The notes under the pieces: model-generated
Told to the model about the DNA's origin: nothing
Databases searched by the model: none
What the model saw: only the letters and a program-made list of their open reading frames with translations
Origin: Clostridia bacterium
GTDB taxonomy: Bacteria > Bacillota > Clostridia > Oscillospirales > CAG-272
Direction: 5' to 3'
DNA length: 43,892 nucleotides
NCBI GenBank assembly: GCA_017532045.1
Contig: JAFXJW010000054.1
Span: forward strand, 1 to 43,892
Translations under genes and position numbers: made by a program
Shown here: positions 2,304 to 43,892 of the stretch, in pieces
How positions within the stretch are numbered: the stretch's first letter is position 1
Layout of the letters: the number at the start of each line of letters is the position of its first letter

Positions 2304-3539
2304 ATGGATATTTCCGCTAATCAGATTGAAGCCATTGTCCGCCAGGTCGTAGCCTCCATGGGTGCCGGTTCTACCGCCCGCAGAACGGCCGCAGGTCCTC
2401 TGCCCAAGGTTGCCAAGGTCGCTATGCTGGTAGGTCCCAAGAAGATCGAGATCCAGGAAGTTCCCCTCCCCGAGCTGGGCGAGGACGACATCCTGATCAA
2501 GGTCGAGGGCGCCGGTGTCTGCGGTACCGACGTTCATGAGTGGAAGATGGATCCCTTCGGCCTCATGCCCGTGGTTCTCGGCCATGAGGGTACCGGTGAG
2601 GTCGTCTACTGTGGCAAGAACATCGTCAAGGACACCGCAGGTAACCCCATCGGCGTTGGCGACAAGATCGTTACCTCCGTTATCTCCTGCGGCGACTGCT
2701 ACAACTGCCGCATGACCCCCGGTCGCACCAACCTGTGCGCCAATCAGGGCGTTTTCGGCCTGATCGGTGACAAGAGAGGCTCCGCCGAGGGCAACCGCGC
2801 CAACGGCTGGTTCGCCGACTACATGCTCATCCGCGGCGGCGAGGCCTCCGGCGCTACCTTCTTCCAGGTCAACGAGCTGAACCTGAATCAGCGTATGATC
2901 CTGGAGCTGGCTTGCGTTTGCGTCCACGCTCTGGAGAGAGGCCAGAAGACCGGCCTTCTGAACTTCGGCTCTAAGGTTCTGGTTCAGGGTTGCGGCCCTG
3001 TGGGTCTGGTGATGATCACGGTTCTCCGTGCCGCCGGTATCAACCACGTCATCGCCGTGGACGGCAACGAGGACCGTCTGAAGGTCGCTCAGAAGATGGG
3101 CGCTAAGACCACCATCTGCTTCAAGCGTCCCGACGAGGACACCATTGACAAGCGCGTTGCCAAGGTTCAGGCCGTTGCCAACGGCGTGGGCGTTGACTTC
3201 GCCTTCCAGTGCACCGGCGCTCCTGTTGCCGCCGCTGACATTTACGCATACATCCGCCGTGGCGGCGGTATGTGCGAGATGGGCTTCTTCGTCAACAACG
3301 GCGAGTACTCCGTCAACCCCCACTTCGCTATGTGCAACAAGGAGATCGACATCGTCGGCTCTTGGGACTACTCCGCTGAGGACTACCCCAAGACCGTGGC
3401 CTTCCTGAAGCAGTGTCAGGAGATGAACATCCCGATCGAGGAGCTCATCACCCACACCTTCCCCCTCGATCAGATGAACGAGGCTATGGAGACCAACGTG
3501 GCTCAGAAGGGCATCAAGATCGCCTATATCGCTAAATAA
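2304..3539 (+). CDS. Zinc-dependent medium-chain alcohol dehydrogenase with N-terminal encapsulation peptide
   Basis: MDR motifs are present: GVCGTDVH, GHEGTGEV, structural-Zn CGDCYNC and Rossmann GCGPVGL. The N-terminus SANQIEAIVRQVVASM is followed by a roughly 20-aa linker. RBS GAAAGGAAAG. Confidence 0.85.
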   Translation: MDISANQIEAIVRQVVASMGAGSTARRTAAGPLPKVAKVAMLVGPKKIEIQEVPLPELGEDDILIKVEGAGVCGTDVHEWKMDPFGLMPVVLGHEGTGEVVYCGKNIVKDTAGNPIGVGDKIVTSVISCGDCYNCRMTPGRTNLCANQGVFGLIGDKRGSAEGNRANGWFADYMLIRGGEASGATFFQVNELNLNQRMILELACVCVHALERGQKTGLLNFGSKVLVQGCGPVGLVMITVLRAAGINHVIAVDGNEDRLKVAQKMGAKTTICFKRPDEDTIDKRVAKVQAVANGVGVDFAFQCTGAPVAAADIYAYIRRGGGMCEMGFFVNNGEYSVNPHFAMCNKEIDIVGSWDYSAEDYPKTVAFLKQCQEMNIPIEELITHTFPLDQMNEAMETNVAQKGIKIAYIAK

Positions 3540-14714: not shown

Positions 14715-15241
14715 AGTGGCCTCCTTGGGTCGTGTTGCTGACAGGGTATGCAGGATGTGGGGAGAGAGTGACAAATTGTGGTTTGTCGGGGAGGTCTCCC
14801 CGTACCCCGTTCCCCCACGTAGGGGTGAAGGGCGAAGCCCTTCATTAAGAGAAGTGGCCGGGGGTATTGGGGGCGGCCGTGAGCGCCCCAATGCGCACCG
14901 GAAGGTGCAAGAAAAATTTACGAGTCTATATAGGAATTTCTCTTTTCACAAAAGAAATTTTGTTGAAAACCTTCTTGCGGCTTCCGCCGCGCGTCAGGGC
15001 GTTTTTCCGACAAGCCGCACCACGGCAAATGATGCCGTAAGGGCAACATTTGCAGGCCGCAACCTTCTCGGTTAACCTCAGATGGTGTTCGTGTTGCGGC
15101 TGACGCCCCCGACACCCCAGGCCTCCTACTTTTGCTTTGCAGGGCTTCGCCCTGCACCCCATAAAAGAGGAAACCCAACTAACCGACAAACTCCAATTTA
15201 TAAATTTTCTCCCCTCCGAGCAGTTTTCTGCACAGAACATC

Positions 15242-15270: not shown

Positions 15271-15354
15271 ATGGATAAGAATATTTACAGCACGGAGAGG
15301 ATCGCGGCGACTTGTCGCCGCCACCTCCAATACATCGCACAAAGGAGATCAACC

Positions 15355-16779
15355 ATGATCCAATTCGGCACAGGCGGCTGGCGCGCCGTCATCGGTTCTG
15401 ACTTTATCGAGAAAAACATCTGCCTCGTTACCGAGGGCATCTGCGCCCTCATGAAGGAGGAGGGCAAGACGGACAAGCCCATTGTCGTGGGCTACGACCA
15501 CCGCTTCCTGTCCGACATGGCAGCCAAATGGATGGCCGAGGTCTTTGCAGCAAACGACGTAACCGTGTGGTTCATGAACCGCTCTGCCCCCACCCCTCTG
15601 GTCATGCACACCGTCATGCGTCAGAATCTGTACTACGGCGTGGAGATCACAGCCTCCCACAACCCCTCGGACTACAACGGCATCAAGCTCATCGTAGAGG
15701 AGGGCCGTGACGCTCCCCTGGAGACCACCGCAAGACTGGAGCAGCTCATCGCCGAGATCGAGGAAAGGAATATCCCCTCCCCTCGCATCCCCTTCAACGA
15801 GGCCTGCGCCAAGGGTCTGGTAACCTACCGCAAGAACCCCTTCAACGACTTCATCGACGACATTCTGGACATTCTGGACGTGGAGACCATCCGCAGCCAC
15901 GGCGCCCGTGTCCTGTTCGACCCCATGTACGGCTCGGGTACATACCCCCTCATGGTCATCCTCTGCACCGCCCGTTGCACCGTGGACATGATCCACAACA
16001 CCCGTGACGCCCACTTCGGCGGCCACCATCCCGCCCCCTCCGTGGCAGGTCTGGCCGAGCTGCGCACCCGTGTGGTAGCCGGCAAGTACGAGCTGGGTAT
16101 CGCCTTTGACGGCGACGGCGACCGTCTGGGTATCATTGACGGCAACGGCCGTTACCTCTCCGCCAACGAGATCCTGGTCATGCTCTACTGGTACCTCCAT
16201 GAGATCAAGGGCTGGCGTGGCCCTGTGGTGCGAAACCTGGCCACCACCCACATGCTGGACGCTATGGCCGCCGACTTCGGCGAGACCTGCCATGAGGTTC
16301 CCGTAGGATTTAAGTACATCTCCGCGGGTATCGACACCCACGACGCCGTTCTGGGCGGTGAGTCCTCGGGCGGTCTGACCGTCCGTGGCCATATTCACGG
16401 CAAGGACTCCATCTACGCCGCTTCCCTATTCGTGGAAATGGTCTCCGCCGTGGAGAAGTCCCCCTCCGAGATCATGGACGAGTTGGAGAGAAAGTACGGT
16501 CACTTCGAGATGGTGGAGGACAACATCACCTTTACCTTCGAGCAGAAGGCCACCGTCAACCACATCATCTTTGAGGAGAAGAGAATCCCCGACTTCGGCA
16601 AGGCCGTAGCACGGGTGAGCTACGAGGACGGCTGCAAGGTCTACTTCGAGGACAACAGCTTCGTCATCTGCCGCTTCTCGGGCACCGAGCCCCTGCTCCG
16701 CATCTTCGCCGAGGCCGGCGATGCCAAGACCGCCAAGGACTACATCGACGCCTTCCGTGATCTTCTGGCGCTGGAGTAA
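15355..16779 (+). CDS. Phosphoglucomutase/phosphomannomutase family protein
   Basis: Phosphoserine loop EITASHNPSDYNGIK, Mg loop FDGDGDRL and sugar loop GGESSGG. Start at MIQFGTGGWR behind AAAGGAG. Confidence 0.9.
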   Translation: MIQFGTGGWRAVIGSDFIEKNICLVTEGICALMKEEGKTDKPIVVGYDHRFLSDMAAKWMAEVFAANDVTVWFMNRSAPTPLVMHTVMRQNLYYGVEITASHNPSDYNGIKLIVEEGRDAPLETTARLEQLIAEIEERNIPSPRIPFNEACAKGLVTYRKNPFNDFIDDILDILDVETIRSHGARVLFDPMYGSGTYPLMVILCTARCTVDMIHNTRDAHFGGHHPAPSVAGLAELRTRVVAGKYELGIAFDGDGDRLGIIDGNGRYLSANEILVMLYWYLHEIKGWRGPVVRNLATTHMLDAMAADFGETCHEVPVGFKYISAGIDTHDAVLGGESSGGLTVRGHIHGKDSIYAASLFVEMVSAVEKSPSEIMDELERKYGHFEMVEDNITFTFEQKATVNHIIFEEKRIPDFGKAVARVSYEDGCKVYFEDNSFVICRFSGTEPLLRIFAEAGDAKTAKDYIDAFRDLLALE

Positions 16780-21983: not shown

Positions 21984-22382
21984 AAAAAAGATCAGGCATA
22001 TGCGTAGTGCCCTTAAGGACACTACGCAGCGATATAAATCCCTTACGGGATTTGCGATATACGCTATCGCGTGCGATATATCTTCGATGCGATATGCCCT
22101 GCGGGGCGTGAAGGGGATTTATATCATATCGCAACCGACCGCAAGGGAGGTTATATCGCTTTTGAGCGTAGCTTGCATGGCAAGCCGCGAAAATATATCG
22201 CATTTGCGAAAGCAAATATATCGCCATAAAAAAGAGCTTCTGTGTCCACAGAAGCAGTGCTTGCAAAGAAAAGAGGACGAGGCTTTTACAGCTCCTCGTC
22301 CTTTTCCTGTCGGTAGGTAACGTACTTTATTAAATTTCAAAAACTGTCCTTTAGAGTACGCACCTTATGCCTGATCTTTTTT
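21984..22382. repeat. Heptamer-hairpin array 1 bracketed by a 17-nt perfect inverted repeat
   Basis: The bracket is AAAAAAGATCAGGCATA (21984-22000) and TATGCCTGATCTTTTTT (22366-22382). Inside, GCGATAT occurs at 22029, 22054, 22073 and 22089. ATATCGC occurs at 22126, 22153, 22195 and 22218. Each pair of motifs is separated by a small hairpin. Confidence 0.85.
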
Positions 22383-22389
22383 GTTGAAA

Positions 22390-22545
22390 TCACTCTTCCT
22401 TCTCAAAAGCATCCTTACCCAGTCCGCAGACGGGGCACTCGAAGTCCTCGGGAAGATCCTCGAAGGGGGTGCCGGGGGCGATGCCGTTGTCGGGATCGCC
22501 GACGGCAGGATCGTATTCATAGCCGCAGGGGCAAACGTATTTCAT
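22390..22545 (-). CDS. Rubredoxin (51 aa, not in ORF track)
   Basis: Hand translation gives [51 protein letters not shown], with CxxG...CPxCG motifs. RBS GGAGGT. Confidence 0.9.
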
Positions 22546-22764
22546 GGGTGTGTACCTCCGTTTTGAGTTTCTTTATATTGTTCCCTCCCAAACAGAACCT
22601 TAATCAGCGGCGGGAGACAAGTGAACTGCCCCAAATTGTACGGACAGCACAAAACCAGCCTTAATGGCAGAAAATATTAAATTTTAAGCAACGAACTGAC
22701 ATCGCGCGTGGTTTTACTATACAAGAAAAGCCACCCCAACCCGCAACAGTTGAGGTGGCGTTCC

Positions 22765-23007
22765 TTATCTGATCTCCTGCTCCAGATCCTCGAACAGGGG
22801 CGAATTGAAAAAATCCTGAATGGTGATCTCCAGACCGTCGCAGATCTTTTTGATGGTATTAATCTGGGGATTTTTGTTGTTTCCTCTAACAATATTGCTC
22901 AAGGTAGATTGAGTAATTCCGCATACCAAGGACAATCCGTTGACCGTAATCAAATTTTTTCTGCACAGATCTAATATTCGCAAACGGACAGCTTCGCCGA
23001 TGGTCAT
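22765..23007 (-). CDS. XRE-family helix-turn-helix transcriptional regulator
   Basis: 80 aa: LRILDLCRKNLITVNGLSLVCGITQSTLSNIVRGNNKNPQINTIKKIC. AT-rich codon usage unlike the neighbouring genes. RBS AGGAGA. Confidence 0.85.
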   Translation of the reverse strand: MTIGEAVRLRILDLCRKNLITVNGLSLVCGITQSTLSNIVRGNNKNPQINTIKKICDGLEITIQDFFNSPLFEDLEQEIR

Positions 23008-23020
23008 GAGTTGTTCTCCT

Positions 23021-23131
23021 AACTTTTTAAGGTTAACACCATTTTACAAAGGATGTGTAAAATTTGCAAACCTTATTAGGTTGACAAACCAAAGAAGATG
23101 TGGTATAATTCAACCGCAACCTTTTTAGGTT
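23021..23131. promoter_or_regulatory. Divergent control region: sigma-A promoter plus three AACCT-N4-AGGTT operator-like palindromes
   Basis: Promoter: TTGACA (23081), 17 nt (TGG), TATAAT (23104). Palindromes: AACCTTATTAGGTT at 23069-23082 (overlaps the -35), AACCTTTTTAGGTT at 23118-23131, and imperfect AACTTTTTAAGGTT at 23021-23034. Confidence 0.65.
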
Positions 23132-23156
23132 AAAAATCAAAATACGGAGAAATAAT

Positions 23157-23420
23157 ATGTCACTCAAAAATTGCACCGAATGCGGCAAAGTAGTTTCCAC
23201 CCAAGCGCGGTTTTGCGTTCATTGCGGGAACGAGCCCGCCGGTCGGTTCAAAACCTGCATCGACTACTGCACCGAGGATATGGCCACCCCCGACCGCCCC
23301 GCCTGCTTTACGCACCATCCCGCCTGCCCGGCCTACATTTACGATGACCCCGAGGCGGTGGAAATCCACAAAAAGAAAAAGAAGAAGGCCTTGAAGCGGG
23401 TGTTTCCGTATTACGGATGA
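23157..23420 (+). CDS. Small zinc-ribbon protein
   Basis: 87 aa with CTECGKVVSTQARFCVHCG (CxxC-N11-CxxC). A further Cys/His-rich segment and a poly-Lys tail follow. Confidence 0.6.
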   Translation: MSLKNCTECGKVVSTQARFCVHCGNEPAGRFKTCIDYCTEDMATPDRPACFTHHPACPAYIYDDPEAVEIHKKKKKKALKRVFPYYG

Positions 23421-31645: not shown

Positions 31646-32347
31646 TTACCGCTTCTCCACGATCTGCCCCCCTCCCCCGCTTTTAAAGATCCCATGGGAG
31701 GGCACCGCCCCCCGCACCGAGGACAGGGGATAAATATTTGTGTGCGCCCCGATGACCGTCCCGGGATTGAGGACGCTGTTGCACCCCACCTCCACGAAAT
31801 CTCCCAGCATAGCCCCCAGCTTTTTCCGCCCCGTGGGGATGGGGGCAAACTCCCCCTCACACCCCTCGGCCGGTCTGACGGTGACGGGGGTTTTGTCGCT
31901 CTTGACGTTGGAGGTGATGACCCCCGCCCCCAGGTGGGACTTGTAACCGAGGACAGAATCCCCCACGTAGTTATAATGGGGCGCCTGCACCCCGTCGAAG
32001 AGGATGCAATTCTTCAGCTCGGTGGAGTTCCCCACCACGCACCCCTCCCCCACCAGCGCCGCCCCTCGAATGAACGCCCCCTGCCGCACCTCGGTGTTCT
32101 CCCCGATGATGACGGGGGCTCCGATATAGGCCGTGGGGGCAATCGAAGCGGTCTTGGCGATCCAGACACCCTCGGCGGGGTTGTCATAACGGGTGGGGTC
32201 AAGGCCCTCGCCAATCTTCTGAATCATGACAGGAATGTCCCCCAGAATCTCCCACGGATATTCCGTATGCTCCAGCCACGGGCGTGCCAGCGTGTGGGTA
32301 AGATCGAACAGCTCCGCCGTGCGGAGGGGGATATGATGTGTTCTCAT
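31646..32347 (-). CDS. Hexapeptide-repeat (left-handed beta-helix) transferase, GlmU C-terminal-domain-like, stand-alone
   Basis: Start at ATG 32347 (MRTHHIPL) behind AAGGAG. Repeated [LIV]-G-x4 turns are present: IGAPVIIGENTEVRQGAFIRGAALVGEGCVVGNSTELKN... The listed N-terminal extension translates the repeat array. Confidence 0.75.
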   Translation of the reverse strand: MRTHHIPLRTAELFDLTHTLARPWLEHTEYPWEILGDIPVMIQKIGEGLDPTRYDNPAEGVWIAKTASIAPTAYIGAPVIIGENTEVRQGAFIRGAALVGEGCVVGNSTELKNCILFDGVQAPHYNYVGDSVLGYKSHLGAGVITSNVKSDKTPVTVRPAEGCEGEFAPIPTGRKKLGAMLGDFVEVGCNSVLNPGTVIGAHTNIYPLSSVRGAVPSHGIFKSGGGGQIVEKR

Positions 32348-32375
32348 GGCAGTTCTCCTTCTTAAAATTTGGGTT

Positions 32376-32600
32376 TGTCGGGCTGCGCCCGACCTCGCGC
32401 CCGCAGGGCGCATATCGAATTTCGGAGAAATATATCGAGTGCCGCAAGGCACATATCGAGTCCCGCAGGGACATATCGACAACTTTTTTCGTCGATATAC
32501 ACCCTTCGGGTGTTCGATATACCGCCGGTGCGGTTCGATATGCCGCTTGCGCGCCTCGATATGCCCCCTGCGGGGGCGAGGGGCTTTCAGCCCGACCAGC
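32376..32600. repeat. Heptamer-hairpin array 2 (4+4 dyad, about 21-nt phasing)
   Basis: ATATCGA occurs at 32412, 32432, 32453 and 32473. TCGATAT occurs at 32492, 32514, 32535 and 32556. The spacers are different GC hairpins (GTGCCgcaaGGCAC, GTCCCgcaGGGAC, ACACCCttcgGGTGT, ACCGCcggtGCGGT, GCCCCctgcGGGGC...). The centre is ATATCGAC-N10-GTCGATAT. Confidence 0.9.
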
Positions 32601-32609
32601 TCCAATTTC

Positions 32610-33986
32610 TCATACAAGCCCTTCCCTTTTGATCAGGTCTACCATCTCGGCTACGAGGGCTTCGCAGGTGGTCTCGTTGGCAGCCTCCACCATGACCCGC
32701 ACCACAGGCTCAGTGCCGCTGCTACGGAGGAGCATACGGCCATTGCCTCCCAAGCGGGCATTACACTCGGCCAGCTTTTCCTTGACGGCAGGATGTCCCA
32801 GAACGGCGTTCTTGTCGGGGACGGGGATGTTCCTTGTGACCTGGGGATACATGATTACAGGCTCGGCCAGCTTGGACAGGGGGAGCTTGCTCTCCACCAT
32901 TCGCTCCATGACCATAATAGCCGTCAGAAGCCCGTCCCCCGTGGTGGCGTACTTGCGGAGGATGATGTGTCCCGACTGCTCCCCGCCGATACCAAAGCCC
33001 TGCTCCTGCATGGCCTCGTACACGAAGCGATCCCCCACGGTGGTTTGGATATAGCTCATCCCCGCCGCCTCCAGGGCACGGTACAGCCCCATGTTGGACA
33101 TAATGGTAGTGACCACCGTGTTCCCCGCCAGCGCCCCCTGCTCCTTCATGGCCTTGCCCAGAATATAGAGAACGTGATCGCCGTTTACCTCGTTGCCCTT
33201 TTCATCCACGGCGATGCAACGGTCGGCGTCTCCGTCAAAGGCAAATCCCACGTCCAGACGGTTCTCCAGCACCAGCCGCTTCAGCCGCTCGATGTGGGTA
33301 GAACCGCAATCCACGTTGATGTTGAGGCCGTCGGGAGTGTCTCCCGTGACCACCGTCTTAGCCCCCAACGCCTCAAAAATGACCCGCCCCATCATCCAAG
33401 CCGCCCCGTTGGCGCAGTCCAGCCCCACCCGAAGCCCCTTATAGGAATGGGTGGCCAGAGAGATCAGATGCCCCACGTAGCGGTTGCGCCCTGCGGCGTA
33501 GTCAATGATGCGCCCCACGTCTCCCCCTGTGGCCAAGGGGGGCTCACCCATCTCCCCGTCCAGATAAGCCTCCATAACGGCAATGGCGTCGTCTCCCACC
33601 TTCTCCCCCCGAGGGTTGACCAGCTTGATACCGTTGTCGGTGAAGGGGTTGTGGGAGGCGGAGATCATGATCCCGCAGTCAAAATCTTCCCGCTCGGTGA
33701 TAAAGGACACGCTCGGGGTGGTGGTGACGTGGAGCATGTAGACGTCCGCTCCCGAGGCCGCCAGCCCCGCCGCCAAGGCGTACTCAAACATATAGCTGGA
33801 ACGCCTCGTGTCCTTCCCTACCAGAACACGGGGGCGATGACGGGTAACAGCCGCCTCGGCGGGACGGCTCAGATCATGCTCCCCGCAGTACCACCCCAAA
33901 AAACGCCCCAGACGAAATGCGTGATCCGCCGTGAGGGTGACGTTGGCCTCCCCCCGAAAGCCGTCGGTTCCAAAATATTTTCCCAT
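32610..33986 (-). CDS. glmM: Phosphoglucosamine mutase
   Basis: MGKYFGTDGFRGEAN, phosphoserine loop ISASHNPFTDNGIK, FDGDADRC and GGEQSGH. Confidence 0.93.
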   Translation of the reverse strand: MGKYFGTDGFRGEANVTLTADHAFRLGRFLGWYCGEHDLSRPAEAAVTRHRPRVLVGKDTRRSSYMFEYALAAGLAASGADVYMLHVTTTPSVSFITEREDFDCGIMISASHNPFTDNGIKLVNPRGEKVGDDAIAVMEAYLDGEMGEPPLATGGDVGRIIDYAAGRNRYVGHLISLATHSYKGLRVGLDCANGAAWMMGRVIFEALGAKTVVTGDTPDGLNINVDCGSTHIERLKRLVLENRLDVGFAFDGDADRCIAVDEKGNEVNGDHVLYILGKAMKEQGALAGNTVVTTIMSNMGLYRALEAAGMSYIQTTVGDRFVYEAMQEQGFGIGGEQSGHIILRKYATTGDGLLTAIMVMERMVESKLPLSKLAEPVIMYPQVTRNIPVPDKNAVLGHPAVKEKLAECNARLGGNGRMLLRSSGTEPVVRVMVEAANETTCEALVAEMVDLIKREGLV

Positions 33987-34091
33987 AGTCTATTTCCTTT
34001 CTCGATGGATTACTTACAGTATATCCCTCTCGGGGGAGTTGCATATACCCTTTTTGTAAAATTTTGAACCAATCGCACCCGCCGCCGGACA

Positions 34092-34127
34092 CAAAAAATC
34101 CCCGACAGATTTTTGGGATCTGTCGGG
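34092..34127 (-). terminator. Rho-independent terminator after the small AT-rich gene
   Basis: Minus strand: CCCGACAGAT cccaaaa ATCTGTCGGG followed by GATTTTTTG. Confidence 0.75.
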
Positions 34128-34136
34128 ATGCATATA

Positions 34137-34439
34137 TTATGGGTTATGAGTTTTTTTGTGAATAATCCATTGGCTATTTTGGAATTCGGCATATTCGCCG
34201 CATTTCAAACCAGACAATTCGATTACGTTGTTTTGAAGGCGTATAATTTCTGACAAAGCAACAATTCTTGCTTCTTCCGGGTCATGCTTTTTACCGCATA
34301 AAAACTGCCTCTCACCGTCTTCATCATGGGAAACGTATAGGATCGGGTTATATTCATCCAGTATATGGCAACATGTAAAGCATCGTGTGTTAGGAGAGTC
34401 TTTAAATTTATGCTGTTGATTGAACAACTTGAATTTCAT
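34137..34439 (-). CDS. Small protein, DUF2185/immunity-protein-like (tentative)
   Basis: 100 aa from ATG 34439 behind AAAGGAG. The motif ILYVSHDEDGERQFLCGKKHD resembles the conserved core of DUF2185-type proteins, from memory only. Low-GC codon usage. Confidence 0.5.
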   Translation of the reverse strand: MKFKLFNQQHKFKDSPNTRCFTCCHILDEYNPILYVSHDEDGERQFLCGKKHDPEEARIVALSEIIRLQNNVIELSGLKCGEYAEFQNSQWIIHKKTHNP

Positions 34440-34510
34440 AATAATTTCTCCTTTCATTTGATCGCCAGCTTCGTCTTTGTATTGCAAAGGATTCGGGCAA
34501 ACCCATACCC

Positions 34511-35047
34511 TTATTCTTCTGCATATAGTTCGTCGTAGCACCAACGTATCGGATTTTCATAAATGTATTTCACGTGTTCTTCATAGTCATCACGGTTGCG
34601 GATAATATGATCATCAAAGCGAGCTTGCCAAATGTTTTCGCCATATTCCTTGTTGCAAAAACGCTTAAATGTCGATACGAATTGAGAACACGCACTATTG
34701 GCTCTCTCAATATTTGTAGGGACAGGCGTCCTCGACTGTCCGTTATCGGTCGTATTTTTGTTTTCTTTGACCCAAAGCAACAAATGAATATGGTTTGGCA
34801 TGATCACATATTTTTCAACCGATAAATGACGGTAGAACTCGTTTAATTGTTTGATGTATTTATCCGCGATTTTTCCGTATTCTGTTAATTCGGTTTACGG
34901 ACAGTCGAGGACGCCTGTCCCTACGATGCGAGAGAAGATGCATCGTCTGTTTTGTGTGCAGATCGTTAAAAAATAAACACCGACACTATTATAATTAAAG
35001 CTCTGATACCTTGGTGTTTTTCTCTTTTTCAATTCATCCATATTCAT
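34511..35047 (-). pseudogene. RAYT / IS200-like HUH (Y1) transposase interrupted by one in-frame TAA
   Basis: Listed ORFs 34895-35086 and 34511-34807 are in the same frame. Hand translation across the gap reads ...VGTGVLDCP*TELTEYGKIADKYIKQLNEFYRHLSVEKYVIMPNHIHLLL.... The HUH motif is NHIHLL and the C-terminal Tyr region is DHIIRNRDDYEEHVKYIYENP. Confidence 0.8.
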
Positions 35048-35138
35048 CACCCACACCATTATAACACAAATCGGCAGAGGAAACAAGTACTCTGCCGATT
35101 TTTATTTGGTGCGGACAGTCGAGGACGCCTGTCCCTAC
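34716..35138. repeat. Three copies of a 26-nt REP-like element associated with the transposase gene
   Basis: GGACAGTCGAGGACGCCTGTCCCTAC occurs at 34899-34924 and 35113-35138. Its exact reverse complement occurs at 34716-34741. Two copies lie inside the coding sequence and one lies upstream of it. Confidence 0.9.
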
Positions 35139-35201
35139 AATGTTTAGGAAACATCCTTACGAGAAGGAGCGTAAGGGAAAGGCTTTTGGTTGTATCCGTA
35201 T

Positions 35202-37235: not shown

Positions 37236-38276
37236 TTATTCCTTCCAAGCGGGGATCTCCTCCTTGAACAGCTCGTAGAACTCGGAGTTGGTCACCAGCA
37301 CGATGTCCTCGTCTGCGGCGGCGGCCGCGGCGATGGTCTTGATCATCAACTCGAACTTATCCCAAGAATCGAAGCGATCCAGCTCAAAGCCGTGACCCCA
37401 AACAAAGTACAGCATATCCTCGGTGCAGGGGGCGGCGATGAACTCCTCCAGAAGCGACTGGGCATCGGCATCGCTGACGCTACAGGTGGGATACCACCTC
37501 ATGAAATACTGGGGCAGGCCAAACTTTTTAATACCCTTGTAGGTATTGCGGGTGGTACAGCTGCCGTAACGGATATTGGTGGTCTCCATAACCACGTCGA
37601 TGGTATGATCGGTAATGTCACCGTCGCCGCCGGGCCATGCCACGCCAACGGGTCTATAACCGAAGATCTGCTTCAGGGCGGCAACGTCTCTCGTGATCTC
37701 AGAGGTGACCTGACTGTCGCCACAGCCCTTCAGGGAATAGTGATTGACGGTGTGGCTCTGAACGTCAAAGCCGTCGTAAACACCCGCCACGATCTCTCTT
37801 CTGGTATAGCGCTTGTGGGTCACGTCGGGGCGGTCCGGATATACGACTATACTTTGACCAAACAGACCGGAGCTGATATAGAAGGTACAGCAGTCCACTC
37901 CGTACTTGCGCATGATCTCCATCATACGGGCATCCTGGGTAATACCGTCGTCCATACGGATGGTGATATACTTCTTAGGCGTGCCGTCACGGACGTACTG
38001 GGTCTCGGGCTCGGTGGTCTCCTCCTCGACGGTAGTCTCTTCAACCGTAGTCTCCTCTGCGGTAGTTTCCTCAGCGGTGGTTTCGGCGACGGTAGTCTCC
38101 TCTGCGGTGGTCTCTTCCATGGTGGATTCCTCCTCTGTGGGTTCCTCGATGGTGGTATCGGCGGTCGTGTCCGTAGTCTCAGGGGCGCTCACAACGGGAT
38201 CGCAAGCGGTCATACACAGAGCAACGGTGGACAGGATCAGCAAAAGCGCCGCTGTCAAAAGCAAATATTTCTTCAT
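37236..38276 (-). CDS. Polysaccharide deacetylase (NodB-type) lipoprotein with Glu/Thr-rich repeat linker
   Basis: Signal peptide plus lipobox LCMTAC. Linker (E)ETT(A/V)EETT repeats. Catalytic-domain start ITIRMDDG. Confidence 0.8.
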   Translation of the reverse strand: MKKYLLLTAALLLILSTVALCMTACDPVVSAPETTDTTADTTIEEPTEEESTMEETTAEETTVAETTAEETTAEETTVEETTVEEETTEPETQYVRDGTPKKYITIRMDDGITQDARMMEIMRKYGVDCCTFYISSGLFGQSIVVYPDRPDVTHKRYTRREIVAGVYDGFDVQSHTVNHYSLKGCGDSQVTSEITRDVAALKQIFGYRPVGVAWPGGDGDITDHTIDVVMETTNIRYGSCTTRNTYKGIKKFGLPQYFMRWYPTCSVSDADAQSLLEEFIAAPCTEDMLYFVWGHGFELDRFDSWDKFELMIKTIAAAAAADEDIVLVTNSEFYELFKEEIPAWKE

Positions 38277-43803: not shown

Positions 43804-43832
43804 TTGCCAGAACGAGGATTTTGTGGTAGAAT
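43804..43832 (+). promoter_or_regulatory. Candidate sigma-A promoter firing rightward into heptamer array 3
   Basis: TTGCCA, 17 nt ending in TGG, then TAGAAT. The array starts about 20 nt downstream. Confidence 0.5.
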
Positions 43833-43851
43833 ATGATAAATTGAGGTTTGT

Positions 43852-43892
43852 GGGGGCTGAAAGCCCTCACGCCCCCGTAGGGGGCATATCGA
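43852..43892. repeat. Heptamer-hairpin array 3, first units only (cut by window end)
   Basis: GGGCTGAAAGCCCTCACGCCCCCGTAGGGGGCATATCGA nearly matches the reverse complement of the right end of array 2 (TCGATATGCCCCCTGCGGGGGCGAGGGGCTTTCAGCCC). Confidence 0.8.

Follow-up and report, generated by a model that had tools for sequence, protein, structure and literature searches.

What is the regular array of seven-letter words that sits between a glmM-like gene and a transferase gene of a Clostridia bacterium (Oscillospirales; CAG-272), and is it peculiar to that site? The DNA that was analysed, called the window here, is the whole stretch of 43,892 nucleotides at positions 1 to 43,892 of contig JAFXJW010000054.1 (assembly GCA_017532045.1), in which a sequence-only reading had noticed the array. 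We put at about 0.6 the probability that the array forms the inside of a mobile repeat, 246 bp long, non-coding and of the foldback type, similar to a miniature inverted-repeat transposable element (MITE), with two arms built on the Gut-1 module (Rfam RF01706) and inserted between glmM and the transferase gene in a lineage of gut or rumen Clostridia; the element would act as folded DNA, would have a four-helix-bundle protein as its partner, and would be neutral in the operon. The architecture is unusual, but the element is not of a new kind: it is a variant of the Gut-1 module, diverged and arranged as a convergent dyad.

The array itself is as the sequence-only reading had described it, with four copies of ATATCGA followed by four of TCGATAT at exactly the positions given there. 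The core-to-core distances are 20, 21 and 20 nt on the left and 22, 21 and 21 nt on the right, within the 20-22 nt proposed. All of the spacers are mutually different hairpins with a stem of 4-6 bp and a tri- or tetraloop, and the orientation flips, again as claimed, at an inverted repeat of 8 nt, ATATCGAC / GTCGATAT, whose arms are 10 nt apart. Counting both strands, ATATCGA occurs 10 times in the window, 8 of them inside the array, against 3.0 +/- 1.8 in shuffled sequence, and 0 of 100 shuffles reach 10. Folded as a single strand, the array region gives -138 kcal/mol, and the comparison with shuffled controls that had been proposed as a check yields z = -10.6. A chance or low-complexity feature, or a purely local tandem duplication with no wider family, would account for the 21-nt periods that Tandem Repeats Finder reports inside each arm. 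It is ruled out, with next to no probability left to it, by a heptamer enrichment beyond all shuffles, by dozens of homologous arrays in other genomes and phages, and by the clean controls for the covariation described below.

What the sequence-only reading missed is the enclosing element, with its terminal inverted repeats and subterminal hairpins. Its parts are as follows.

32364..32609, no strand: the whole inserted element, 246 bp, from alignment with copies on contigs with unrelated flanks
32364..32383, plus strand: left terminal inverted repeat AAAATTTGGGTTTGTCGGGC, with the shared terminus (T)AAATTKGGGTTTGTCGGG
32377..32393, no strand: left subterminal hairpin GTCGGGC-tgc-GCCCGAC, a perfect 7-bp inverted repeat
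32397..32479, plus strand: left arm, four units of hairpin plus ATATCGA, cores at 32412, 32432, 32453 and 32473
32480..32491, no strand: asymmetric centre caacttttttcg between the innermost cores, read from the sequence
32492..32577, minus strand: right arm, four units in minus-strand reading, TCGATAT cores at 32492, 32514, 32535 and 32556
32581..32609, no strand: right subterminal hairpin GGGCT-ttc-AGCCC (32581-32593) and right terminal repeat …CCCGACCAGCTCCAATTTC, an inverted repeat

The outer inverted repeat joins 32365-32385 to 32588-32608, and the right terminal repeat occupies 32591-32609. The termini read (T)AAATTKGGGTTTGTCGGG … CCCGAYAAACCCCAATTT(A), with the ends placed at about 32364 and 32609 by the alignment of copies, and the first of them also bounds copies at eight other loci (L154, L188, L190, L212, L217, L228, L236 and L255). 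The hairpins of the left arm are gcgcccGCAgggcgc, atttcGGAgaaat, gtgccGCAAggcac and gtcccGCAgggac, and those of the right arm gcccccGCAgggggc, ggcgcGCAAgcggc, accgcACCGgcggt and acacccGAAgggtgt. In other copies, the homologous left subterminal hairpin is GCGGGC-gaa-GCCCGAC and the homologous centre is ACAAAAACTCNGRGT or its complement. The element takes up the gap from the first base past the glmM stop (tca, 32610-32612) to a point just short of the ribosome-binding site (RBS) of the transferase gene, whose start codon (cat) lies at 32345-32347, and no terminator-like site was found inside 32364-32609. With an RBS behind it and no terminator, the element is probably transcribed together with its neighbours and largely neutral in the operon.

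The element is mobile and multi-copy. A check proposed with the first reading was to look for further copies, and a pattern scan of one genome per species matched at least 108 loci. The patterns that served for this were anchored on the core-adjoining GCA hairpin; a search for three direct copies of ATATCGA spaced 18-24 nt brought up a flood of unrelated tandem repeats, and a convergent pattern did little better. The listed matches with arrays are almost all from metagenome-assembled genomes (MAGs) of gut or rumen Clostridia (Oscillospiraceae, Acutalibacteraceae, Faecousia, "Eubacteriales"). Roughly ten listed matches fall outside the Clostridia (Proteobacteria, Bacteroidota, Planctomycetes and others); none of these has an array, and they are treated as chance pattern matches. 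In one MAG, JAZNJA01, which is 83-93% identical to the window across shared genes, convergent-type copies lie on at least 8 contigs with unrelated flanks and with interiors that are near-identical in several, and several of its contigs break inside the repeat. Among the loci fetched, the core-orientation string "----++++" is exact in 29, with many more having one mutated core, and "++++----" is exact in 7, in addition to copies shortened by contig ends. An array can be duplicated in tandem, and the number of its units can rise to ten. Phages carry them as well: one phage contig has both types, a convergent array between the terminase and portal genes and a divergent one before the capsid gene. 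The cultured-phage collection gave no match to the array.

At the glmM locus, the content of the gap differs from relative to relative. In distant relatives (L258, L259, L282), the glmM and transferase genes overlap (GTGA) or are 1 nt apart, and no array is present. These come from a metagenome scan with glmM that gave relatives at 59-63% identity only, and they served as a distant outgroup and not as an empty site; the exact glmM protein was found on one other short contig only. In relatives of the transferase at 81-95% identity, the same gap is variously filled.

L341, L342 and L345, transferase 82-85% identical: other hairpin-rich interiors with the same termini
L339 and L340, transferase 95% identical: right end exactly as in the window, interior different
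L343 and L344, transferase 81% identical: a gap of 57 nt only, with no element

The element at the glmM locus thus undergoes interior swapping, and the idea that the array is a conserved feature of the glmM operon was rejected, as both distant and closer relatives lack it or have other gap content. As side observations at this site, other heptamers are repeated in tandem within the gap: (TGCATTT)n / (TGCAAAA)n for L339 (1-200) and L340 (1-30), and (TTGTATC)n for L343 and L344 (1145-1180).

Of the known systems, MITEs and foldback elements (such as Correia and Nezha, with Drosophila FB as the archetype) are similar in being non-coding, 150-450 bp long and bounded by terminal inverted repeats, in having many copies and insertion polymorphism, in inserting within operons without polarity and, for the foldback elements, in having long inverted arms of short tandem units. 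The glmM element has terminal inverted repeats (32364-32383 and 32591-32609) enclosing a short non-coding sequence and shared with copies elsewhere, and its many copies have unrelated flanks and are present or absent at orthologous sites. It differs in that no partner transposon or target duplication was identified for it, that the structured module also exists without terminal repeats (as in phage L019 and in L223), and that like termini carry unrelated interiors. Such termini around other interiors were seen in the window at 14773-15198, in L255 at 224-481 and 2867-3098, and in L188 at 876-1079. A gene-sized pair of like termini, as an autonomous partner would have, was not found among the loci examined. 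Of the options first offered, then, that of a small repeat element stands, as the element is multi-copy, has terminal inverted repeats and varies in presence among relatives, and the added remark that it belonged to no described family does not, since its architecture is that of Gut-1.

The window holds three array copies and one sister element in 44 kb. These are given here with the two genes that flank the glmM element.

32610..33986, minus strand: glmM-like phosphoglucosamine/phosphoglucomutase, 458 aa, upstream flank, with four PGM_PMM Pfam domains
31646..32347, minus strand: hexapeptide-repeat transferase, 233 aa, downstream flank, by Pfam Hexapep / LbH
22027..22226, plus strand: second member, divergent type, with 4 x GCGATAT, a centre and 4 x ATATCGC, cores spanning 22030-22223
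43837..43892, plus strand: third copy, start only, interrupted by the window end, with the terminal repeat, subterminal hairpin, first hairpin and first ATATCGA
14773..15198, no strand: hairpin-rich non-coding element, 426 bp, without an ATATCG array, with like-kind termini CAAATTGTGGTTTGTCGGGG … CCGACAAACTCCAATTTA

The placement of the array between glmM and a transferase gene, both on the minus strand, is therefore as first read and has Pfam support; one homolog of the transferase carries the source name UDP-N-acetylglucosamine pyrophosphorylase. Related arrays had also been pointed out, and they exist at 22030-22223 and 43837-43892, although the former has the opposite arrangement (GCGATAT, then ATATCGC). 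That array adjoins the downstream end of a PMI-ROK fusion gene, has as its centre the hairpin gccctgcggggc followed by GGGGATTTATATC, and can be aligned with 32 arrays from other genomes. The start of the third copy closely resembles the reverse-complemented right end of the glmM element. At 43804-43832 there is a good sigma-70-like promoter (TTGCCA-17-TAGAAT, with an upstream TG), whose end lies 5 nt ahead of the third copy's terminal repeat; this copy would then sit at the very 5' end of a transcript leaving the window. The sister element at 14773-15198 lies upstream of a second PGM/PMM gene (15271-16779).

Gut-1 was found in human-gut sequences by Weinberg et al. 2010 and rated as probably RNA on its covariation (PMC2864571). 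Neither a function nor a gene association is reported in that paper (PMC2864571), and no later literature on Gut-1, or on arrays adjoining PF05635 genes, was found. The consensus, CAaUGAAAU-hp-GUGAAAU-hp-GUGAAAU-hp-gUGAAAU, can be aligned end to end with the window array, in which there are likewise three variable hairpins, separated and flanked by four conserved heptamers. The linker word of the window is UCGAUAU or GCGAUAU in place of GUGAAAU. The published seed includes GUGAUAU and GCGAUAU members, so the GUGAAAU word is not strictly defining for Gut-1. In addition, the seed sequences, when taken with their flanks, have the 4+4 divergent layout and a similar conserved centre.

With permissive thresholds, the Rfam model (gathering threshold 50 bits) gave full-length but sub-threshold matches in the window: 17.5 bits for the left arm (32427-32494, minus strand), 17.4 bits for the right arm (32490-32567, plus strand) and 33.3 bits for 22027-22100 (plus strand; E = 5e-5). 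A sister ATATCG-type array, L166, passes the threshold with 51.7 bits, and the GTGAAAT arrays L337, L338 and L157 pass it with 57-73 bits. A covariance model, R1, was built from 32 left halves of divergent arrays with the window excluded. It matches both arms of the glmM element at full length, the left (32411-32480, minus strand) with 55.6 bits (E = 4e-11) and the right (32491-32563, plus strand) with 51.1 bits (E = 5e-10); it gives the 22027-22226 array 81.2 bits for the left half and 37.5 for the right, and bona fide Gut-1 in L337 and L338 25-44 bits (E 3e-8 to 1e-3). Moreover, a single contig can hold both CGATAT-word and TGATAT-word arrays. The arms of the glmM element are diverged relatives of the Gut-1 module and members of its architectural family, and Gut-1 is one half of a dyad array. 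The two have in common the module, a unit of about 70-77 nt and an origin in gut metagenomes. They differ in that the Rfam model is one half only, oriented on the CGATAT strand, that the module of the glmM element forms a convergent dyad within terminal inverted repeats, and that the pairing statistics of the arrays studied here point to DNA and not to RNA.

Do the arrays have a partner gene? The open reading frames (ORFs) around 89 arrays were clustered, and two neighbours recur. One encodes an RlmD/TrmA-like methyltransferase; in 13 of the 15 loci that have this gene, it ends with its stop codon 6-20 nt short of the array, and its orthologs are 34-80% identical. The other, at 12 loci, encodes a PF05635/TIGR02436 four-helix-bundle protein; here the array comes first, the start codon is 20-45 nt further on, and transcription leads away from the array. 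When loci were ascertained from the protein instead, a divergent array stood directly upstream of the TIGR02436 gene in 5/5. Two of these are viral contigs with bona fide Gut-1 arrays (63-73 bits) directly upstream, and the other three are metagenomic lineages with complete upstream ATATCG arrays and three different upstream genes. The four-helix-bundle protein is conserved at 60-76%, compared to 39-54% for the adjacent methyltransferase. One of its clades alone has >7900 matches, and its nearest solved structure is the uncharacterised 2RLD. The heptamer word differs with the protein.

Word ATATCGC: four-helix-bundle N-terminus MENKTIKELAVEL…
Word ATATCGA: four-helix-bundle N-terminus M.DNKNQLREDAIEFAI…
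Word ATTTCAC: four-helix-bundle N-terminus MAESKLRNLS…

The word tracks the clade of the protein, a match that shared descent could explain, and the link between arrays and this gene is in all respects one of association. At L215, L209/L159 and L356, the gene is bracketed by ++++ upstream and ---- downstream.

Several further arrangements were seen at these loci. In L159 (1405-2349) and L209 (4234-5178), the four-helix-bundle gene is followed by a gene for a conserved 314-aa protein without a Pfam, NCBIfam or PADLOC match, and half-arrays bracket the two genes jointly; the PADLOC anti-phage library has no match to either protein. In L174 (3480-4010), the intact gene is preceded by four tandem copies of the right half-array plus the first ~45 nt of the four-helix-bundle ORF, as if insertion or recombination had been repeated at one point inside the ORF. 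L356 has, directly after the gene (2343-2450), a half-array with another word (ACATCAC x 4, with TTGC-type loops), and the 19-nt TGTTTTGTCTTCGACAAAG is directly repeated on either side of its array-plus-gene module. A large serine recombinase gene stands directly before the module in L353 (126-1799; also in L354), which suggests that the module is at the edge of an integrated element.

The next question is in which form the arrays are read. Perfect stems of 4 bp or more occur in 74% of 442 non-redundant spacers, compared to 8% after shuffling. Covariation among copies had been named as a further check, and in an alignment of 33 divergent arrays 15/15 hairpin pairs have changed on both sides, with 95.7% of cells paired; 0/500 shuffles match this pairing, and no slide of the alignment comes near it. 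There is also a long-range helix, in which CGATAT and the 5' arm of the first hairpin pair with the array centre (94.9% paired, 5 compensated pairs), and together with the local hairpin this amounts to three-way covariation. The stems of the spacer set hold 1302 Watson-Crick pairs, 6 G·T and 1 A·C, and the parts of the alignment have G·T and A·C in the ratios 5/6, 6/5 and 5/2, which is about 1% each and no G·T excess on either half. On the ATATCG strand the loops are GAA (72), GCA (27), GCAA (20), GTCA (17) and GTTA (11), also GTA and similar, with a C-G closing pair, and their complements are absent from the 40 commonest loops. The d(cGNAg) and d(cGNNAg) loops are the classic, very stable mini-hairpin loops of DNA (Hirao, Yoshizawa, Nakano), and in RNA it is the GNRA subset only that is special. 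The covariation, the pairing statistics, the loops and the core spacing of 16-27 nt in the family together speak more for folded DNA than for RNA or for a phased operator in duplex DNA. Because the hairpins are Watson-Crick-perfect and their C-G-closed GNA/GNNA loops are always on the 5'-ATATCG-3' strand, the functional form is most likely folded DNA, either single-stranded or extruded.

A different account would make the arrays a structured RNA module, within the glmM transcript or in the 5' leader of the four-helix-bundle gene, whose hairpins and AUAUCG linkers bind a protein or set RNA processing or stability, the dispersed copies being incidental or a REP/BOX-like punctuation of operons. 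Gut-1 was, after all, rated as RNA by Weinberg et al. 2010 (PMC2864571), and covariation is strong in the arrays studied here too. The glmM element is very probably transcribed, as it lies between co-directional genes with no terminator, and the three-way covariation could be a switch, the arm of the first hairpin pairing with the array centre in one state and with its local partner in the other. However, G·U makes up about 1% of the pairs, which is no more than A·C, whichever strand or half is considered. Most loops are GNA triloops or GNNA loops outside the GNRA class (GTCA, GTTA), which by their stability are special in DNA and not in RNA. Every transcript would carry one sense and one antisense arm, convergent-type copies occur in either orientation relative to neighbouring genes, and the element is missing from most of the glmM operons examined, the distant ones included. 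We therefore disfavour the RNA in the glmM transcript that the sequence-only reading had offered as an option, and regard an RNA role as rather unlikely.

Some of what speaks for RNA also weighs against folded DNA with a four-helix-bundle partner, and it is gathered here with the other points that do so. Where an array adjoins the four-helix-bundle gene, its nearer half has the sense orientation of the gene's 5' leader, with GNRA-like loops and an RBS within 10-30 nt, and the GNRA-type loops GCAA, GAAA and GTAA are also stable in RNA. Divergent arrays follow the 3' end of a co-directional gene by 35:11 (by heuristic ORF calls, ~13 orthologous loci included), a bias that would also fit a role as RNA. 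The perfect palindromes and the loop polarity could in part reflect inheritance by copying and not selection. No activity in catalysis or in sequence-specific binding is known for the four-helix-bundle protein, and the window encodes no such protein. As for mobility, no transposase or other mobilising gene recurs among the ORFs within 2.5 kb of the 89 arrays, so the idea of a transposase partner was dropped. Nor could a target-site duplication be read from the aligned copies and the gaps of relatives; the ends are often TAAATTG… and …CAATTTA, which fits duplication of TA or AATT, with no clean empty site from a near-identical strain to compare.

Could a protein simply bind the heptamers in duplex DNA, four per orientation, as at an operator, a centromere-like site or a roadblock, with the spacer hairpins incidental? 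The heptamers are invariant and the spacers variable, the spacing is about 21 bp in the subfamily of the glmM array, and the words ATATCGC, ATATCGA, ATTTCAC and ATATCAC differ by subfamily and track the clade of the adjacent four-helix-bundle protein. The seventh base of the heptamer also changes in concert on both arms at the level of subfamilies (GC 14, UA 14). Across the family, however, spacers are 10-21 nt long, with modes of 12, 14 and 19, which places the cores 16-27 nt apart. The spacing of 20-22 nt is kept only in the subfamily of the glmM array, so helical phasing is not a property of the family, and no helical register of the kind found in phased operator or iteron arrays is kept. 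The compensatory upkeep of the hairpins and the strand-specific loop rule play no role in duplex recognition, and copies lie at arbitrary intergenic sites, phage structural operons included. The option of a phased protein-binding array on one face of the DNA is thus poorly supported, and we consider a duplex-binding array in general quite improbable.

A ladder of 7-bp helices and four-way junctions, formed by pairing of the left heptamers with the right, had also been proposed. The minimum-free-energy fold does give such a ladder, and its local hairpins have comparative support. The arm-to-arm helices do not: at the only variable heptamer position, the mirror register gives 19/33 against 38/66. 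As the seventh base covaries by subfamily and not in mirror register within mixed arrays, pairing of the arms was dropped. Other candidates were set aside without formal test: DnaA, Spo0A and ParB box arrays on poor word match, clustered regularly interspaced short palindromic repeats (CRISPR) on a weak Rfam match only (E = 6), integron attC sites for want of an integrase, and retrons or diversity-generating retroelements for want of a reverse transcriptase nearby.

If the mobile element with Gut-1 arms does act as folded DNA, a trans-acting protein would read each arm on its own strand, by the shape of the hairpin and the single-stranded heptamer, and the dyad layout would make this reading independent of the orientation of insertion. 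The best candidate for the partner is the TIGR02436/PF05635 four-helix-bundle protein, as its gene is always preceded by a divergent array. One could go further. Gut-1-type arrays may be the cognate nucleic-acid ligand of stand-alone TIGR02436/PF05635 proteins, which are related to the retroelement cofactor Avd and to the proteins that 23S rRNA intervening sequences encode. Each strand of such an array would offer one arm for reading, in the form of folded single-stranded DNA (or RNA). Gene and array together would then form a previously unrecognised selfish element similar to an intervening sequence, gene-less copies such as the one after glmM would be its non-autonomous derivatives, and the word would co-evolve with the clade of the protein. 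This is a tentative proposal, to which we give some credence but which we would not expect to hold.

Intervening sequences of 23S rRNA (in Leptospira and Coxiella) encode PF05635 proteins. They resemble the arrays in that a small PF05635/TIGR02436 ORF is bracketed by inverted, stem-forming sequence, as in the ++++ [gene] ---- arrangement described above. They differ in that the arrays lie outside rRNA genes, the brackets are hairpin-heptamer arrays, and the glmM copy has no ORF. Repetitive extragenic palindromic (REP) sequences of Proteobacteria, with BIMEs and REPINs, offer another comparison. They too are short intergenic palindromes with a conserved short flanking word, inverted clustering and high copy number, often just after stop codons; they are thought to act as folded single-stranded DNA, and a single protein gene flanked by repeats was the clue to their partner. 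However, REP stems are conserved across the genome and their word is GTAG, whereas in the arrays the stems differ at each position, the word is ATATCG, and the units come as four direct and then four inverted ones. A genome-wide palindrome with a 5' GTAG and a REP-flanked gene for a REP-associated tyrosine transposase (RAYT) was not what we found: no HUH/RAYT gene lies near any copy examined, and the flanked gene is TIGR02436, without a nuclease motif. The attC sites of integrons, finally, are palindromes of variable sequence and conserved structure with complementary 7-nt core words, recognised as folded single-stranded DNA of one strand. The arrays differ from them in having no integron integrase or cassette array, in having four nested core pairs and not two boxes, and in the lack of support for mirror-register pairing of the arms.

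A few other features of the window can be recorded. Two islands are low in G+C, 22260-23400 (0.47) and 34000-35200 (0.40), compared to about 0.58 elsewhere. The first begins directly after the divergent array and two terminator-like hairpins, and the second contains an ORF (34137-34544) without a Pfam match. Within a coding region at 38012-38156, there is a 15-nt tandem repeat of about 9 copies with 69% matches.

What, then, does the locus tell us about these bacteria? The repeats break metagenomic assemblies, several contigs ending inside them, and insert between tightly coupled genes, so they should be masked or annotated in pipelines for gut MAGs. Gut-1 is now placed in gut and rumen Clostridia of the Oscillospirales type, lineages on a cultivable scale, and in their phages. 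New here are the DNA-like pairing statistics of Gut-1 and the finding that its divergent form precedes a four-helix-bundle gene. Gut-1 has been a motif of unassigned function since 2010, and TIGR02436 is among the commonest of the unexplained small proteins; the analysis links the two, and this link makes both questions directly testable.

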